From an uncultured virus (IMG/VR IMGVR_UViG_3300033075_001055) (taxonomy: Duplodnaviria; Heunggongvirae; Uroviricota; Caudoviricetes): a stretch of 64,000 nt of DNA. Below are positions 8,281 through 37,331 of this stretch, one piece after another. The stretch lies in the IMG/VR virus record IMGVR_UViG_3300033075_001055; one strand, written 5' to 3'. The number at the start of each line of letters is the position of its first letter. Positions within the stretch are counted from its first letter, which is position 1. A program made the translations under genes and the position numbers. The notes under the pieces were generated by a model that saw only the letters and a program-made list of their open reading frames with translations, was not told where the DNA came from and made no database searches.

Positions 8281-8521
8281 GTCCGCACCTCCAGTAGTTC
8301 GATCGCGCTCGCCGTCAGCGGGCAGAGCACGGTTTCGGGGTTGTTCTCGGTTGGCTGCATTCGCGGGGCTAGGTTGTGGCACTCGCCCTGGTTCGCGCCC
8401 CATTCCGTGTCATGCGGCGGATGTTGCTTCCCGCACTGCTCACAAACTCCCGGCGTGTGCCCGTCAGACAACGGCGCACTGTTCGACCGATAGCGCGACG
8501 CGACTTCGTCTGACTTGCGGC

Positions 8522-8716
8522 TCATTCCCGCTTCCCTTCCTCTGCCCTCTTGTCCTGGCAAAAGTCGCACACGCCGTCAGTCCGTGCGACGTGCCGACAG
8601 AACCCGCAGCCGCCTGATGATGGCGGGCAGTAGACCACTCCGAAGCCGTCAAAGTCCGCGTACTCACGGCGGCACTTTGGACAGAACATCGTGGGCTGTT
8701 CAACCTCGCCGTTCAT
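8522..8716 (-). CDS. small Zn-finger protein
   Basis: CPKC, CGFC and CDFC motifs. Confidence 0.6.
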   Translation of the reverse strand: MNGEVEQPTMFCPKCRREYADFDGFGVVYCPPSSGGCGFCRHVARTDGVCDFCQDKRAEEGKRE

Positions 8717-11218: not shown

Positions 11219-12060
11219 GGTCTCACCTTACCGTCCTCGTAGTACGCAAACTTTCGCACCGACTCCCGCAACTCCGACGCGCAGCAGATCATTCCCCACA
11301 TCGCGGATAGGGCTGCGTCGCGGTCTCTTTGCGCGTCGTGTAGCTGACTGCACACCGACTCAAACTGTTCGCGCACGTGCTCCCGGTCCGCGTCGGCTTC
11401 GATGGCGCGCTTAATTGCGGCGTCGCGGTCGGACTCGGCTTTCTGGCGCGCTTCACGTTCGCGGTATACCATCTGCACAGCCACGTTAGACACGATGCAC
11501 CCCCGTTTCCGAATCCGCCACCGGCTCAGGTACCGACCCGTCTGGTAGCGCGTGGTGGGTCGCGGTGGTTTGCTCAGTCAGGGCTGAGAGCAAAGCCGCG
11601 CGCCATGCTTGGTCTGTGCAGTGCCAACTCTGCAATACGCGCGTCTCTCCGAACGTTTCCTGCCATGCGTTCCAGGTGGCGACTGCATGGACCCGGCGCA
11701 ACTCCATGTCCAGAAAGACCGTGCTGGCATCGGTCCATTTAATGCCAAGCCACACGCCATGGATTAACCCAGCCGCGCACTTGGCTGCAAACTGCAATGG
11801 GGTCATTTCGTCACCGCCTTTCGGATGTAGCGCCGTGACCCATTTCCGCGGCGGGTCTCCTCGCTGTTGTGCTTGTAGAAATTGGCCTTGCTTCCGTACT
11901 TGCTCACCACGCGCCACTGCATCGGTGTTTCGCCCTCAATGCGTCCGGTCCAGATAACCTTGTCTGCCGGGCCAGACACGCACCAGTGATATCCCTCGCA
12001 ATACTCCACCTCGTCGCCTACTTTGAACATCGCGCGCTCCGTGCCCAGTGGGCGAAGGGG

Positions 12061-31168: not shown

Positions 31169-31360
31169 TCATTGCGCTCCCTCCTTCGTTTCAGCACCCG
31201 CAGACGCATACGGCAACAGTCGCCCCGACGTAATCGCCCACTCGACGACTTCAGCAAGCATCGACGAGCGCGACCGGAAAGGCCCCGCGGCTGCGTCCAG
31301 TGCCTCGACATGACGCGGCGGCAGAGCTACAGAAAGTCCCTGTACTGGTTCTTTGGCCAT
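31169..31360 (-). CDS. ribbon-helix-helix protein (paralogue of 28235-28417)
   Basis: MAKEPV..SVALP.RH..ALDAAAGPFRSRSSMLAEVVEWAITSGRL shared. Confidence 0.7.
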   Translation of the reverse strand: MAKEPVQGLSVALPPRHVEALDAAAGPFRSRSSMLAEVVEWAITSGRLLPYASAGAETKEGAQ

Positions 31361-31461
31361 GATTGATAACTGCTATCACGGCCGCACACTTTAAGGCAAG
31401 CGCGAATTACTCAGCGTTGCCGATTTTGCCGCCTCATTTGAGGTCGAAAAATCGGCAACAG

Positions 31462-31884
31462 TTACGCTGGCCCCGTCGGAAGCGGGCGGTAGTGCGTGGG
31501 GGCGTACGTCCCTGTTGGGTGACTAGCCAACACCCATCCGTCATAGGAACTAAGATAGCGCAGCACGGCGCAACCAAATGGCGGAACCCAGGCCAGTACC
31601 GCCGTCCCATCCTTGGGCGCCTCGGAAATCGGCCGCCACTCCGCGAGCTGTTGCAGGCGCCGGAGTTCGGCGGTCAGTTGGGGCAGCAGTTCTCTCGCGC
31701 CTATGATCGCGCGCTTGTTATTCGGCCAGAGTGCGTGACTGCCCGCGAGGTTGTCGCTGGGACCGAAACAGACGATATTCCCGACGATGTTGGCGCGTGT
31801 GCCAATCGAATCGCCGTCATCAGTCCATGGCCCTGGCGTGCCCATGCACATGATTTGGATAGCTCGTTCAATCAGCGCGTCCAT
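31462..31884 (-). CDS. Ead/Ea22-like N-terminus fused to a DUF551-like domain
   Basis: TPGPW motif; WRPISEAPKDGT...PTHYRPLP. Confidence 0.75.
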   Translation of the reverse strand: MDALIERAIQIMCMGTPGPWTDDGDSIGTRANIVGNIVCFGPSDNLAGSHALWPNNKRAIIGARELLPQLTAELRRLQQLAEWRPISEAPKDGTAVLAWVPPFGCAVLRYLSSYDGWVLASHPTGTYAPTHYRPLPTGPA

Positions 31885-32039
31885 TACTTGGGCTCCTTCG
31901 CTTGTTCGGCCAGTCTCTTTGCAGCGCGCAAAGCCTGCTTCGCCACAGCCCGCGTGCAGTGAAAAGCTTGCATCAGCAGGCGGACCACAGCGGCTTGCGA
32001 CTGTCCCGCGCGCAGGGCTTCGATTGCGAGCGCGATCAT
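31884..32039 (-). CDS. hypothetical 51-aa protein (below the ORF-track cutoff)
   Basis: MIALAIEALRAGQ...KEPK; ATGA and TAATG overlaps at its ends. Confidence 0.55.
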   Translation of the reverse strand: MIALAIEALRAGQSQAAVVRLLMQAFHCTRAVAKQALRAAKRLAEQAKEPK

Positions 32040-32211
32040 GCTTCACCCGCGTCCATCTTCGCGACCAGCCGCCACAGCCCCGCCGTTGCCTTGCGCCATT
32101 CCATGCGCGCGGTTCTGAGTTCGTGTTGGCACTGTTCAACGCGGCCTTGCCCTTTTATTGCCGCCGGCCTCCGAATAAAAGTGCTGGCGGCGGAATAAAA
32201 GTGCAGCCGGC

Positions 32212-32457
32212 CTAGCGCCTCTTTTCCGCCGCCTTTGCCCGCCCCTCACGCTTCGCAGCAAGCCGCTTCATTTCCGTTAGCGTCTCCCGCTCGCGATCGA
32301 CCAACTCGCGCGCAGCCTTCTCTAGAAGCGCGTTCATGCTGCCCCCAGGTTCCAGGGCCGCCAGCAACCTCAGTTCCTCGTACAACTCCGTCGGGAAGTT
32401 GATCGTCGATTTGTGCAATCCGCCGGGCTCAGACGCGGCGACTTTCCTCGGTGCCAT
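32212..32457 (-). CDS. transposon cargo: ribbon-helix-helix protein
   Basis: STINFPTELYEELR...SMNALL; TTGACC-N17-TCTGTT-N6-ATG. Confidence 0.7.
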   Translation of the reverse strand: MAPRKVAASEPGGLHKSTINFPTELYEELRLLAALEPGGSMNALLEKAARELVDRERETLTEMKRLAAKREGRAKAAEKRR

Positions 32458-32576
32458 GGCAGCAACAGAACACGCTACCTGCATAGGGTCAAAACCTTCC
32501 TCGACGGAATATGTGCATTAATTTCCCATATGCAATGCCTTCTGATATGCATAGCAAGCACATCAGGAGGCCACCA

Positions 32577-32897
32577 ATGAACGAGAGAACTCAGAGTTCA
32601 CGCCCGCGAAAATTGGCTACCATCGCCGCACGCCTAGACCTCAGCGATGAAAAACAACGCTTCGTCCACGACGCAATACGACGCACGCACACGGGACGTT
32701 GGCCACTTTGGCAAGCGTTGGCGATGCGTCAGATTGGGCCGTTTCTCGTCGAGGCAGTGCGCTGGCGTCCGCGACACCTGAAAGAACGCGCCACTTTTAG
32801 CGTGGTCCGTTGGGACAGCAATCAGATGGCCGTCACGTGGACCTATGCGCGTTCCCGAGAGGCTGCCATCGCTGCTCTGCGTTCATTCTCTGCCTAG
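32577..32897 (+). CDS. transposon cargo: hypothetical Trp/Arg-rich protein
   Basis: AGGAGG RBS; divergent from the RHH gene. Confidence 0.65.
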   Translation: MNERTQSSRPRKLATIAARLDLSDEKQRFVHDAIRRTHTGRWPLWQALAMRQIGPFLVEAVRWRPRHLKERATFSVVRWDSNQMAVTWTYARSREAAIAALRSFSA

Positions 32898-33145
32898 TTT
32901 CCCAACCGTCGCAGCGACGGAAGCGCTAGGACAAGAGACCGCGATTGATGAGTTGGCCGCTCAAGCCTAACCGCGCGCCATTCCAATAGTCCGTCCGCGC
33001 TCGGATGCAATCATCCGCACAATTTTCAACGTCAGCACACCGACGAAACCGGCATTAATACGCCATGCGGTCACGAAGATCGCATTGACAGCGATTCGGG
33101 CATTCGCCTACTTTTCTCCCATCTTGAGAAAGAGGAGGAATCACA

Positions 33146-33595
33146 ATGGCTTACCGGATCTTGGCGGATGGTAGCGTCGAAGGCTCGACGGTCGAAGAGA
33201 CGATCGCCCTGTATCGTGCCTTGGCGTCCGAAAAGGGCCTCGCGCCACGCGAAGACAAACCAGCCAAGCGGCGGGGTCGCCGGGCTTCTGTGAGGCCGCT
33301 CGCGGGCGCACATGATGACCCATCCTGGGCGGCATTTGTTGAGGTCCTGAATCCGCATCAACGCGATGTCCTGCGAAAGATTCGCGAAGATCAGCGAGTT
33401 TTGCGCAGCGAGATCGTTGAACTGGTCAAAGAGACCGGGAAGTCGTTTGCGCGAACGATGGAGGCGATCAAGGATGCCGTCGCGAATGCCGGCCTCAAAC
33501 AAGCCGATGTCTTCTCTCGGGAATACGAAGGCTTCGGCGCGGAGAAGGTGACGCACTACGTCGCCGGCAAGAAACTGCTGGCCAACGAGCTATAG
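33146..33595 (+). CDS. transposon cargo: possible winged-helix DNA-binding protein
   Basis: TTGACA-N18-TACTTT promoter (33085-33114); GAGGAGG RBS; LNPHQRDVL...SEIVEL helix pattern. Confidence 0.7.
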   Translation: MAYRILADGSVEGSTVEETIALYRALASEKGLAPREDKPAKRRGRRASVRPLAGAHDDPSWAAFVEVLNPHQRDVLRKIREDQRVLRSEIVELVKETGKSFARTMEAIKDAVANAGLKQADVFSREYEGFGAEKVTHYVAGKKLLANEL

Positions 33596-33993
33596 CGATC
33601 GGAGGAATGACCATGACCCTCAGAAGAACAATAGCCGCTACGTAAACTTGTTCAGCGTACGTAGCGGCTATAACCCAGACAAGCTGGGCGACAGTCGTTC
33701 CCCGTTTCCACAAGGCACTCCCGTCGGTTGGCACCACGGAGCCTAGTTGAAGCGGGGCGCGGCTTCAATATTTTTCCGCAGCAACGGGACAGGTGCGCGT
33801 TGCGCTTGTTCCAACTAGGCCCCTTGGTTAGTGAGGCGACAAAATGGTCGCGAGCCCATGTAGGACCTGCGGGTGTGTCCCGTCGGTGATCTTCCGAAAA
33901 TCGCGTCTCGATGAACGTACGGGACGCCGCATTTATGCGCGGCGATGCTTCTGCATCCCGATCTATTCGTGCGGCTGCCCTAGCAAGTAGGAT

Positions 33994-34032
33994 GCGAGCG
34001 CCCGCCGCGTCGTTCTGGCGGCGGGCGCTCGC
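33994..34032 (-). terminator. 15-bp GC hairpin right after the RHH stop
   Basis: GCGAGCGCCCGCCGC-N9-GCGGCGGGCGCTCGC; no U-tract. Confidence 0.55.
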
Positions 34033-34223
34033 TACGTCTTCTTGTTCTCCTGTTTCGCGACGCGCAACAGCCTCTCCGTGACCCATGCCGAGATGCTAAT
34101 GCCCGCCTTCGTGGCAGCGGCCTTGAACGCTTCCATGTGCGCCTCGGACACCCGCACGCGAAGGTGTGCTTCTTTGCGCATATCGTCAGGCTTCCGGCGC
34201 TCAATTTTGTCTGTCTTAGGCAT
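34032..34223 (-). CDS. transposon cargo: RHH (MobC/DUF1778-like) regulator
   Basis: LRVRVSE...FKAAA...GISISAWV; TTGCGT-N17-TACGTT-N6-ATG. Confidence 0.78.
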   Translation of the reverse strand: MPKTDKIERRKPDDMRKEAHLRVRVSEAHMEAFKAAATKAGISISAWVTERLLRVAKQENKKT

Positions 34224-34301
34224 GCCGCAAACGTATTCCATTTGCCCCACCGACGCAAGTACGATTTTCCTTGGTATTTGTGGGTCTAATGTAATACATC
34301 A

Positions 34302-35621
34302 GTGCGCGTGGAAACGAGCGCTGCGGAAAACTTCTCGACGGATTTCGCCCCTCTCTCGACGACACGCGAGGAGCGCGGGCGTCAGATCGCTAAGCGTGGC
34401 GGCATTAAGCAGATCGGTTCACGGTACGCCGTCCCGTCTCAGTCCGGCGGTGCAAGCGCCTACGTCGTCGATATCGTCGAGGAGTCGTGTTCCTGCCCAG
34501 ATTGGGAACTTCACCAGAACAGCTTTCGCTGCAAACACGTTCATGCGACGTATTTCTGGCTGGCCTGGGGCTCTGAAGTGAACGCGGACGGCAGTACAAC
34601 CGAGACGGTCACGGTCAAGAAAGTGACCCGCCCGAATCAGCCGCGCGATTGGAGCGCCTATACGAGCGCTCAGGCGAACGAAGGGATCTACGTCGAGCGC
34701 ATGCTTCGCGCGCTTTGTGACGGCATTGAGCAGCCTGCGCGCAAGGCTGGCCCCGGTCGCCCGGCGATCCCGCTCAAAGATCAGGCGTTCTCCGCCATCG
34801 CGAAGGTCTACAGCCTCAAATCGCAGCGTCGCGCACAGTCCGACCTGGCCGACAGCGTCGCGAAGGGCAACCTAGACCGCGTCTCGCACATCAATGCGAT
34901 CTCAAACTTCCTGGGCGATGAAGCCTCAACGGCGATCTTGATCTCGCTCGTCGAAGAGAGCGCGAAGCCACTCGCGGCGCTGGAGAACGGGCAGTTCGCG
35001 ATCGATTCCACGGGCTTTTCGACGACGGTTTACGAGCGTTGGTTTTCGGTTCGTCATCAACGCGCCGTCTCGACGCACCCATGGGTGAAACTGCATCTGG
35101 CCTGTGGCACGGTCACGCATGCGATCACTGCCGTCAAAGTCACGCCCGAGGGCGACTGCCCGCAACTTCCCGATCTGCTCAAGCAGACGATGAAGAACTT
35201 CGACGTGCGCGAGCTGAGCGCTGATAAGGCTTACGGCAGCAAAGAAAACTTCCGAGTGATGGACTCGTTCGGCGTCGCAGCGTTCGTGCCGTTCAAAATC
35301 ACCGCCAAGATCGACCCGAAGTGCGAGACGTGGTCACGCCACCTGAGCGAGTTCCTGTTTAACCAGGAGCGGTTTTTGCCCCACTATCACCGACGGTCGA
35401 ACGTCGAAACGGTCATGTTCATGCTCAAGGCCAAGTTCGGCGCCGCGGTGCGGTCCAAGAGCCCCGTCGCGCAAATGAACGAAGTTCTCGCCAAGTGCGT
35501 GCTGCACAACCTGACCTGCATCGTTCAAGCGATCTTCACCGCTGGCCTCACGCCGCGATTCTGGCAGGACGCAGCGCCCGTGACGCCCGCCAGCCGCCCC
35601 ACCCTGACCCTGGTGCCCTAA
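34302..35621 (+). CDS. DDE transposase (IS5/IS4 superfamily) with an N-terminal SWIM zinc finger
   Basis: CSCPD-x8-CKH SWIM motif; DWSAY; AIDSTG; WVKLH; SADKAY; YHRRSNVETVMFMLK (YREK). Confidence 0.9.
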   Translation: MRVETSAAENFSTDFAPLSTTREERGRQIAKRGGIKQIGSRYAVPSQSGGASAYVVDIVEESCSCPDWELHQNSFRCKHVHATYFWLAWGSEVNADGSTTETVTVKKVTRPNQPRDWSAYTSAQANEGIYVERMLRALCDGIEQPARKAGPGRPAIPLKDQAFSAIAKVYSLKSQRRAQSDLADSVAKGNLDRVSHINAISNFLGDEASTAILISLVEESAKPLAALENGQFAIDSTGFSTTVYERWFSVRHQRAVSTHPWVKLHLACGTVTHAITAVKVTPEGDCPQLPDLLKQTMKNFDVRELSADKAYGSKENFRVMDSFGVAAFVPFKITAKIDPKCETWSRHLSEFLFNQERFLPHYHRRSNVETVMFMLKAKFGAAVRSKSPVAQMNEVLAKCVLHNLTCIVQAIFTAGLTPRFWQDAAPVTPASRPTLTLVP

Positions 35622-35971
35622 TGTCCGACCTAGACCCCAAAGAACAAGGCCACGTCCGCGCCGCGATGCGCTTCCTGCGTAACCGTGTCGGGACGTGGGC
35701 GACCGTTGCAGCGGCGCTCCATTCATCGCCCAAGACAATCGAGAACGTGATCGGCGGGCGTGAGGTGTCGGCAAGCCTTGCGCTGCGCGTGGCGCGTCTA
35801 CTGGACGCGTCCATGGACGATCTACTGGCTGGACGTTTTCAGCCCGGCGCATGTCCTAAGTGCGGTCATGTGCCGAGTTACATGCCGCGGCTTGAGTCTG
35901 ACTTCGCGGATGAATCAACCATCGTGGAAGACGCACTGCGACCGGCTGCGGGCCTCGCGTTGGTGAAATAG
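35621..35971 (+). CDS. transposon cargo: XRE-like HTH protein with a CPKC motif
   Basis: TAATG coupling to the transposase; WATVAAAL..SPKTI...ALRVARLL..SMDDLL. Confidence 0.75.
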   Translation: MSDLDPKEQGHVRAAMRFLRNRVGTWATVAAALHSSPKTIENVIGGREVSASLALRVARLLDASMDDLLAGRFQPGACPKCGHVPSYMPRLESDFADESTIVEDALRPAAGLALVK

Positions 35972-35997
35972 AACCAGGTAGCCGCTAGGGTCATCCA

Positions 35998-36252
35998 TCA
36001 TTTGCATCCATGCGGCGCGTCTGGTCCTTCAAGTCCCTCAAAGTTTTCCACATCGGCACAGGGTACAAGTTCGCCGTCACCTATGCACAGCGGACCCACA
36101 ACCCGTCGTGAGGATGTGCCCTCATCTTCCTGCCATAAAGCGAACACCGTGACCGGGCTACGCGTGTTTGTCCCGTCTTTCTCTTTGAAGATCGCGTAGT
36201 AGTCTGCCGGAGCAGGCATGATTTGAAGAATTTTTCGTGTGGTTGCGCGCAT
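35998..36252 (-). CDS. transposon cargo: hypothetical beta-rich protein
   Basis: ILQIMPAPADYYAIF...VFALW; lies inside the right TIR. Confidence 0.6.
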   Translation of the reverse strand: MRATTRKILQIMPAPADYYAIFKEKDGTNTRSPVTVFALWQEDEGTSSRRVVGPLCIGDGELVPCADVENFEGLEGPDAPHGCK

Positions 36253-36579
36253 GGTGCCCGCCAGGTTAGCGCGCAGAATGCGCGCCCGCGAGGAGCTTTT
36301 GAGCAAACCCCGCGCAGCGATCGCAACGCCTGAGTGCATCAAGTCCGGCATAAAAAAGTGCAGCGTCGACCAATAAAAGTGCAGCGTCGGCGCTCAGGGC
36401 AATAAAAAGGCAAAGCCGTTCAACGCGCGTGTCAGTCATGGGAGGCTCACCCGGCAAAGGAGCGCCGTCGAGTTTCCGCTTTGCGTCCAGCCGCAGACGA
36501 CGAGCGCGAGCCATGCGGATCGCGAACTGCTCCAACTTGCTGAACGCGCGCAACTCGTCGGACACGTTCGGGAATTTGC

Positions 36580-36984
36580 TCACGACTCGACCCCCAGCGC
36601 GGCGAGGACTTCGGAATGACTCACGACCCCTCCGTTAAGGCACGTTTCAAATCTGACAGCGCTGCCAAGGGCGCTGAAAGTGACGCGATATCGCGGCAGT
36701 GCCTTGACCTTCTCCCGCGCCTCCGCCAACGCCCGTTCCGCCGCATCTGCCCGTTTCGTTTCCGCCGCCATGCTTTCGAGCAACGTCGCATTGATGGCGC
36801 GGACGTGCGTGGCGTCGGATTCGGCGGCTTCTGCGCGGGCGCGTTCGGTGTCGCGCTCCCGCTTCAGCTCGTCAACGATGGCGAGGAGGCGGGCGCAACC
36901 TTCGTGCATGCCGTCTTTCCGATCTACGTGTGCCCATCGGCTCAGCAGCGCGCGAACTTCCTCAATCTCTTCGTCCCGGTTCAT
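36580..36984 (-). CDS. coiled-coil hypothetical protein (Ead/Ea22-like)
   Basis: ERARAEAAE repeats; coupled overlaps. Confidence 0.6.
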   Translation of the reverse strand: MNRDEEIEEVRALLSRWAHVDRKDGMHEGCARLLAIVDELKRERDTERARAEAAESDATHVRAINATLLESMAAETKRADAAERALAEAREKVKALPRYRVTFSALGSAVRFETCLNGGVVSHSEVLAALGVES

Positions 36985-37331
36985 CGTTTCACCCCATCGA
37001 TCGCGTCTCGTTGCTTGGCCAGGTCAAACTCGGAGTGCAGCATAATCCTGTTCGCCAGCGCTCGCATGGTTGGCGCCGCCGCCGCGTTCATGCTGTGGAT
37101 GTAGATCCGCGGCGATTCGTTGCCTTCCGCCATGACCCACTGTTCCAGCCAGGTCAGCACATCCATTCCCGTGCGAGGGTTGGCATACTCGCGACCTTCC
37201 CCGAGGTCGTGGTCAAGGCTGATTGCTTCCACGCCACCGGCCTTAATAGCGGCAATGACCTCTTCCGGCCACCGGCAAAGCGTCCAGCCTTCGTGCGGTT
37301 TGCGCTCGTCGTCTAGGTAGAGTTTGGTCAT
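36981..37331 (-). CDS. cyclic-phosphate-processing receiver-domain protein
   Basis: LYLDDER, ISLDHDLG, TGMDVL.W and IHSMN motifs. Confidence 0.82.
   Translation of the reverse strand: MTKLYLDDERKPHEGWTLCRWPEEVIAAIKAGGVEAISLDHDLGEGREYANPRTGMDVLTWLEQWVMAEGNESPRIYIHSMNAAAAPTMRALANRIMLHSEFDLAKQRDAIDGVKR

Follow-up and report, generated by a model that had tools for sequence, protein, structure and literature searches.

Members of the IS903 group of insertion sequences (IS) have a Y-2-R-3-E-6-K motif in the transposase, and IS903 itself measures 1,057 bp, with one 307-aa gene between simple terminal inverted repeats (TIRs). In Mu, Tn7, Tn5053/Tn402 and IS21, the transposase binds each end at several sites, whose layout differs between left and right, and these elements use an integrase-like transposase (TnsB, MuA or IstA) with an AAA+ ATPase partner; in Mu and Tn7 the multi-site ends impose left-right pairing. 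Mutator and Mutator-like elements (MULEs) make 9-bp duplications. In MULE transposases a SWIM finger follows the catalytic core, according to the accessible text of PMC1702500, and the accessible text of PMC9330008 and PMC7986276 defines transporter IS (tIS) and unit transposons as elements with terminal repeats, a single transposase and passenger genes that form an integral part of them. Here we describe a 4,275-bp element with seven open reading frames (ORFs) at positions 32143-36417 of a 64,000-nt stretch of DNA (hereafter the window) from an uncultured tailed virus (IMG/VR record IMGVR_UViG_3300033075_001055). The element is real, well bounded and recently inserted into a phage gene. Its best explanation, held with good confidence, is a unit (transporter) transposon that is autonomous and descends from the IS903 lineage. 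The family to which it belongs is apparently unpublished and comprises cargo transposons that combine IS903-like tips with polarised ends. In this family, a relative of the simple IS903 would have acquired a zinc-finger domain, its ends would have become polarised, and it would carry several passengers, often anti-phage defence genes, a route from a one-gene IS to a cargo transposon without a second IS copy, a resolvase or an ATPase.

The element is enclosed by two copies of a 9-bp target-site duplication, GTTCAACGC (32134..32142 and 36418..36426, plus strand). Inside these lie 20-bp TIRs starting with GGCCTTGC on the left (32143..32162, plus strand) and, read inward, with GGCTTTGC on the right (36398..36417, minus strand), which agreed at 18/20 positions. 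Among 7,999 pairs of 9-mer direct repeats spaced 0.5-15 kb apart in the window, this was the sole pair with an inverted repeat of at least 14/20 inside. The G+C content was 0.592 inside the element and 0.601 outside. A preliminary description, made from the DNA letters, had proposed these boundaries, a single internal transposase gene and IS903-like ends, and all three were confirmed: the only transposase lies at 34302-35621, and the GGCTTTG tips and the duplication length equal those of IS903 of phage HK022. GGCTTTG is also the consensus TIR start in 64 elements of the family. The element is not a composite transposon with two flanking IS copies, as its transposase is lone and internal and the region contains no long repeat. 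Instead, a single transposase and passengers lie between one TIR pair, and unit movement was evident from an empty site and from multi-copy units in relatives, which makes it a unit transposon or tIS.

Alleles of the site were compared in four of 20 listed sequencing runs (X1, X3, X4 and X5); runs with small shares (X17-X20, among them the RNA runs) were left out, and stretches without coverage in X4 and X5 were given no weight. The filled form was present in run X1. In run X3, an independent metagenome from another study, a contig with a depth of 17.9 joins position 32133 exactly to 36418, leaving a single copy of the duplicated 9 bp and omitting 4,284 bases, i.e. the element and one duplication (4,275 + 9). 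The X3 contigs listed on both flanks had zero letters differing from the window. An empty allele with such flanks fits a recent insertion, as had been suggested. Excision of the element and one duplication in silico restored an 87-aa minus-strand ORF (32036..36583) coupled to both neighbours, again as first described: its GTG start overlaps the upstream stop (36580-36582), its stop overlaps the ATG at 32039, and about 52 of its codons lie upstream of the insertion. A scan of viral contigs with the N-terminal part of this ORF gave zero homologues; the argument that it is a gene is therefore its coupling.

At a depth of 14, run X3 also contained a filled allele in which a deletion joins 35443 to 36692, and the identical joint occurred in X4. 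The deletion (35444-36691, five letters shared at the joint) removed the C-terminus of the transposase, the following helix-turn-helix (HTH) gene and the right end. Protein P0001 (385 aa), which is 100% identical to the transposase and diverges after residue 382, fits this deleted allele. A third joint, from 31673 to 36850, was present in X3, X4 and X5 (depths 75.6, 16.1 and 19); 31674-36849 is missing from it, which indicates that the region around the element is dispensable in related phages. The empty allele fixes the boundaries, and the window copy documents an element that has moved into a phage population and is decaying there. All the DNA from one TIR to the other entered as a single piece and duplicated 9 bp of target, and its relatives were inserted likewise with varied cargo.

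By sequence comparison, the transposase (34302..35621, plus strand, 439 aa) is an IS903-type core with approximately 110 extra N-terminal residues. It is predicted to consist of a SWIM finger domain (residues ~20-90), a linker, an IS903-like DNA-binding region and a DDE core (D235/D308/E369). Pfam matched SWIM at residues 54-80 (22.8 bits, cut-off 19.6) and DDE_Tnp_1 at residues 232-404. The key residues C63/C65/C77/H79, D235, D308 and Y362-R365-E369-K376, the last four forming the Y-2-R-3-E-6-K signature, were invariant or at least 90% conserved in alignment A1. A SWIM motif before the DDE core had been noted from the start; both are present, with a spacer of CSC-x11-CKH rather than x10. The best NCBIfam model was the IS903-group model NF033579, to which IS903 scored 357.6 bits and the transposase 115.6 bits, below the cut-off of 140; three family relatives scored 115.6-129.5, and the transposase fell below every NCBIfam IS cut-off. 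Its core was 24-27% identical to IS903 of HK022, ISSod12 and ISSpu20 over residues 116-407 (24% to IS903 over residues 116-397). The element therefore shares with the IS903 group its transposase core, motif signature, GGCTTTG tips and 9-bp duplication, and departs from it in failing both the NF033579 cut-off and the group's plan of one gene in about 1 kb: compared with IS903, the family adds the N-terminal residues with SWIM, two extra boxes of opposite polarity per end, a divergent regulator and 1-8 kb of cargo.

The predicted structure of the transposase (predicted local distance difference test score 77) matched Tn5 transposase with a Z score of 18.1 (root mean square deviation 4.7 over 278 residues), in contrast to scores of 8.8-9.6 for MuA, TnsB and IstA. 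A PDB sequence search returned a chance match only, and Foldseek gave zero matches at E 0.001. The element resembles Mu, Tn7, Tn5053/Tn402 and IS21 in its multi-site asymmetric ends. Unlike Tn7, Mu and IS21, its transposase belongs to Pfam DDE_Tnp_1 with a Tn5-like fold ranked first, and an ATPase is absent from the ORFs of the element and from the core genes of the family. With Mutator and MULEs it shares a SWIM finger on a DDE transposase. Unlike the arrangement given in the accessible text on MULEs, its SWIM precedes the core, which is of the DDE_Tnp_1/IS903 type, and the Mutator Pfam and IS256 NCBIfam models had zero matches up to E 1. This suggests that the SWIM-DDE fusion is independent of MULEs. 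An exchange of N-terminal domains among close homologues found only partial support, as 16 of 36 unusual-length homologues still matched SWIM; among the others were one HARE-HTH and one DUF772, and otherwise no named extra DNA-binding family.

Homologues of the transposase were numerous. They accounted for 2,978 of 8,000 scored candidates, and a 50%-identity library contained 1,060 clusters at E 1e-30, the weaker of which will include plain IS903-group proteins. None of the records for 72,556 annotated plasmids and 50,697 annotated phages covered 80% of the transposase, matches there being IS903-group elements (24-28% identity); the family was probably overlooked because its hosts are mostly uncultured. 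A scan of genome contigs with the single sequence found no relative; a scan with an alignment did recover relatives. We studied 170 loci (80 of 90 metagenome, 80 of 191 genome and 10 of 10 viral loci) and the window, 171 in total. GGCTTTG ends first emerged from an unbiased scan of these loci. A guided scan, in which the length of the duplication was left free, found a TIR pair with a flanking duplication at 66/171 loci, including 48 of the 71 with long flanks, and at 0-1 loci in each of five controls. The duplication was 9 bp long in 54 loci, 10 bp in 11 and 7 bp in one, so that the shared ends and duplication expected of homologues were indeed present.

A non-redundant set of 60 elements, from which the duplicates or copies L014, L025, L108, L109, L116 and L135 were dropped, ranged from 2,457 to 9,243 bp (median approximately 4.5 kb), and all 60 carried cargo. 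A strict search for a one-gene minimal element found none with both ends near the gene, and a loose search was too noisy. Like tIS and Tn3-type unit transposons, these elements combine a single transposase, terminal repeats and integral passenger genes. They differ from tIS, which are occasional members of IS families, in that cargo is the rule, and from Tn3 in that neither a resolvase nor a res site appeared among the core parts; the 150 proteins included one integrase-like cargo gene. The hosts included Myxococcota, Planctomycetota, Chloroflexota, Acidobacteriota, Vulcanimicrobiota, Actinomycetota, Woesearchaeota and Micrarchaeota, as well as viral contigs. The family is large and often carries defence systems, and its range takes in phages, two archaeal groups and six or more bacterial phyla. 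One Planctomycetaceae metagenome-assembled genome (MAG) contained six copies of a 3,177-bp unit with 99.9-100% identity and different flanks. L107/L108 and L113/L116 are further pairs of copies, and homology within these sets stopped at or near the TIRs. Such multi-copy units indicate that the cargo moves together with the ends.

The SWIM motif was found in 62 of the 66 complete elements, and one further copy (L094) appears frameshifted within it. In a quick tree, 59 family rows clustered apart from IS903 and ISSod12, the only two outgroups, and 10 proteins that were looked up had no IS name attached. The earlier proposal of a distinct family is supported. A published description was not found in the searchable literature; ISfinder, TnCentral, subscription journals and supplements, which could list such elements, lay outside its scope. 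PMC6563490 was considered as an earlier description from Thaumarchaeota and rejected, the word SWIM being absent from its accessible text.

The ends of the window copy are polarised, a feature that the preliminary description does not mention. Each contains two further copies of TIR positions 6-16, identified by box matching (plus-strand coordinates). On the left (32174-32184 and 32194-32204) these subterminal boxes are inverted relative to the TIR core, forming an inverted-type end, and on the right (36350-36361 and 36372-36382) they have the orientation of the TIR core, forming a direct-type end. Over the 60 elements, 212 box matches were found, compared with a shuffled mean of 14. The offsets peaked at 23/43 or 34/54 in the TIR direction and at 33/53 in the opposite direction. 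Peak matches numbered 173 when an element's own core was used and a mean of 54 with another element's core, which indicates that boxes and TIR co-vary. Both ends could be classed in 42 elements: 40 combined a direct with an inverted end, two had two direct ends and none had two inverted ends. Relative to the transposase gene, the polarity was flipped in 11 elements, including all nine of the window copy's clade (inverted end left), so polarity is a property of the ends. One of the elements with two direct-type ends (L098:4478-8957) has a near-perfect inverted repeat of approximately 50 bp and a transposase without SWIM.

Two kinds of small gene accompany the transposase. In the window copy, a divergent gene directly upstream (34032..34223, minus strand) encodes a ribbon-helix-helix (RHH) protein (Pfam NikA-like, 7e-6; PHROG Arc-like), a predicted repressor of itself and the transposase. 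The divergent promoter spacer between them (34233..34297) contains an inverted pair of 10-bp words, 34233-34242 and 34288-34297, that agree at 9/10 positions and are candidate RHH operators; the preliminary description has the RHH gene only among the cargo and leaves out this arrangement. Downstream, an XRE-like HTH protein with CxxC (35621..35971, plus strand) is translationally coupled to the transposase; it had been listed earlier as an HTH-CxxC passenger, an assignment that is weak by HMM (HigA, 8e-4), with conservation in relatives in its favour (88 matches in the loci). Among the 60 elements, 23 carried a divergent RHH gene and 19 a divergent CxxC zinc-ribbon gene, never both, and the coupled HTH was found in 19, all in the Myxococcota branch. 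An inverted pair matching at 9/10 or better was present in the spacer of 23/53 RHH loci and in 7/265 shuffles. The zinc-ribbon family that replaces RHH (L107:9743-9886 and 22 similar ORFs, 45-60 aa, CxRCxHxW...CPxCxSPYW) had zero Pfam matches and a weak FmdB-like NCBIfam match.

The core of the family is thus the divergent RHH or zinc-ribbon gene (42/60) and, in the Myxococcota branch, the HTH gene (19/60); the remainder is exchangeable cargo. The cargo scan covered 150 ORFs with Pfam and 125 with PADLOC, mostly from 167 heuristically picked ORFs of at least 90 aa. A PADLOC model was matched at 1e-5 in 22/57 elements, a raw count rather than an enrichment over flanking DNA. Both partners of a defence system were found in eight elements: three type II restriction-modification systems, one type I M+S, one PLD nuclease with two methylases, two RmrAT (toxin-antitoxin) and one PDC-M02. 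Other cargo families were P63C (five), Bro-N, XRE-IrrE, Panacea, Gp49 and Fic. With defence models matched so often, the preliminary label of regulator-laden transposons is unsupported as a family trait and fits the window copy only, in which four passengers were tested against defence models with zero matches. Close to their left ends, five elements share a module that comprises a conserved leader and ORFs that begin with RxHRNPR: L020 (3800-4500), L024, L038, L083 and L145.

We propose that the lone DDE transposase would cut at the GGCTTTG tips in the manner of IS903 and would bind the TIR core and two further core copies per end. With boxes of opposite polarity, only a left and a right end together could assemble a transpososome; the ends might then stand kilobases apart, with the cargo between them exchangeable. 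The divergent RHH protein may bind the inverted site pair, which would overlap both promoters, and keep its own gene and the transposase low, while the coupled HTH protein may act as a second regulator or an accessory factor. The SWIM domain would most likely aid target choice or transpososome assembly, the weakest step of the scheme. The family may spread defence and addiction genes between chromosomes and phages; the window copy carries only small, mostly predicted DNA-binding passengers and would have disrupted a dispensable phage gene.

Several observations weigh against this explanation. We infer the binding of boxes and operators from sequence. The operator word tracked the RHH beta-strand class (7/7, 7/7 and 4/6 in three classes, 5/32 in the others), which favours the scheme, but with words that were picked by eye from the same data, at related loci that are not independent. 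At least one end was unclassed in 18/60 elements, another 18/60 figure applies to elements without a divergent gene recognized by the profiles used, and 23 of the 71 long-flank loci had no complete element. Residues 17-97 of the predicted model matched the SWIM proteins ZSWIM8 and Shu1:Shu2 (Shu2) with a modest Z of 5.0, in the range of common arrangements. Three elements (L098, L146 and L160) were complete yet had no SWIM motif within 900 nt upstream, which indicates that SWIM is not strictly needed for cargo ends. The short side of the empty-site contig comprised 20 letters only (10 shared). Finally, the accessible text of PMC3003695 describes IS903 as mainly replicative and that of PMC7986276 notes alternative transposition pathways, so that the element may use a replicative or a cut-and-paste mode.

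The alternative that survives best, a serious possibility although not the one we favour, is a targeted transposon whose SWIM domain steers it to promoters, repeats or structured DNA, the bias to non-coding sites being more than selection. An open frame spanned 17/54 targets compared with 702/1,029 controls, a bias for which the survival of harmless insertions also accounts. Targets lay inside tandem arrays in 7/60 cases, compared with 5/1,757 control sites, and inside hairpins in 4/60, compared with 13/1,757. The array period was 21, 42 or 43 bp in six of the seven, near the 20-21 bp spacing of the boxes; yet all seven array-targeted loci (L006, L008, L011, L013, L082, L145 and L090; periods 21, 42, 43 or 18 bp) belong to the Myxococcota branch. 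Four of the six copies of the 3,177-bp Planctomycetaceae element sit in the end boxes or TIR of other family members (L129, L130, L131 with flanks ~8510-8619 and 11797-11900, and L133:5842-9150), and another (L134) sits in a sequence like repetitive extragenic palindromes. The archaeal target of L146 adjoins a TATA-like tract, as judged by eye. Against this, no fixed-position motif was found over 57 oriented targets, and the target of the window copy is inside an ORF, with array, hairpin and promoter matches all absent. Loose -35 matches were not enriched at targets (17/~60 compared with 403/1,770), and outward TTGAC was at most weakly so (7/56 compared with 83/1,620); general promoter targeting in bacteria was rejected as unsupported by these counts. 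Targeting is possible, and on present counts it is indistinguishable from selection.

A broader version of the proposal is more speculative, and we consider it doubtful. The cross-phylum family (bacteria, archaea and phages; about a thousand clusters at 50% identity) might be an IS903-type transposase turned obligate cargo carrier through polarised six-site ends without an ATPase, with SWIM as a built-in device for choosing repeated or protein-bound targets that have a period of ~21 bp, among them the ends of relatives. In uncultured lineages the family might be a main vehicle of defence by restriction-modification and toxin-antitoxin systems. If true, it would be a one-protein system inserting multi-kilobase DNA at non-coding sites.

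It is improbable that the boxes are bound by the SWIM domain, the accessory HTH-CxxC protein or a host bending protein instead of the transposase core. SWIM and boxes mostly co-occur, the ends of the three elements without SWIM are atypical or could not be classed, and the HTH gene is coupled to the transposase, all of which such a binder would explain; the boxes, however, copy TIR positions 6-16 and change with the TIR, which implicates the TIR-reading domain, and they occur throughout the family, in contrast to the HTH gene. Very unlikely is an ordinary IS903-group IS with chance-captured neighbours (a one-off tIS or one-ended mobilisation) and boxes left from old TIRs, which would account for the shared tips and duplication, for NF033579 as best model and for passenger-bearing tIS known in several IS families (accessible text of PMC7986276 and PMC9330008), but not for the four sub-cut-off scores, the lack of any element under 2,457 bp among 60, boxes at fixed offsets that co-vary with the TIR across many phyla, or the 59 rows apart from both outgroups of the quick tree.

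Besides the transposase and the two small genes that accompany it, the element in the window contains four passenger ORFs. The preliminary description had counted six passengers, mostly small DNA binders. All six ORFs exist, and the RHH gene at 34032 is well supported; the other RHH assignment (32212..32484, minus strand, likely start ~32457) is weak, with Pfam RHH_5 at E 0.07 and a close homologue in L001 (phmmer 1.8e-24), so that this is a probable RHH protein. A 106-aa protein (32577..32897, plus strand) with a GGAGG ribosome site was without a match in Pfam, PHROG and PADLOC, and its Atlas matches were all <0.9; seven homologues lie beside family transposases. A 149-aa protein (33146..33595, plus strand), described before as winged-HTH-like, is possibly a winged helix, matching such models only at TM 0.40-0.54; it had an Atlas feature match of 0.92 to a Myxococcota cluster and homologues in L013 and L165. 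The last passenger (35998..36351, minus strand), whose true start is probably downstream at ~36252, matched PHROG 8653 (E 4.6e-4) and had zero homologues in the studied loci.

The interval 33596-34031 is poor in genes and has several hairpins. One is a perfect 14-bp inverted repeat at 33631-33671, which follows a short ORF that has a ribosome site; others lie at 33746-33769 and at 33994-34032, the latter likely the terminator of the RHH gene. An Rfam search of the interval gave a sub-threshold hairpin match and no family above threshold, and a search for sigma-70 consensus promoters in 31900-36700 scored none. The window as a whole derives from a myovirus-like phage with major head, tail sheath and baseplate genes. 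The nearest taxon-labelled relative was in a Myxococcales MAG (70% identity), which suggests a Myxococcota host for the phage. A 172-bp segment (31217-31388) has a second copy approximately 2.9 kb away on the same contig of run X1 and is a phage repeat. Two genes upstream of the interrupted ORF, the phage gene at 36981-37331 encodes a cyclic-phosphate processing receiver domain (Pfam cREC_REC, 1.7e-24).

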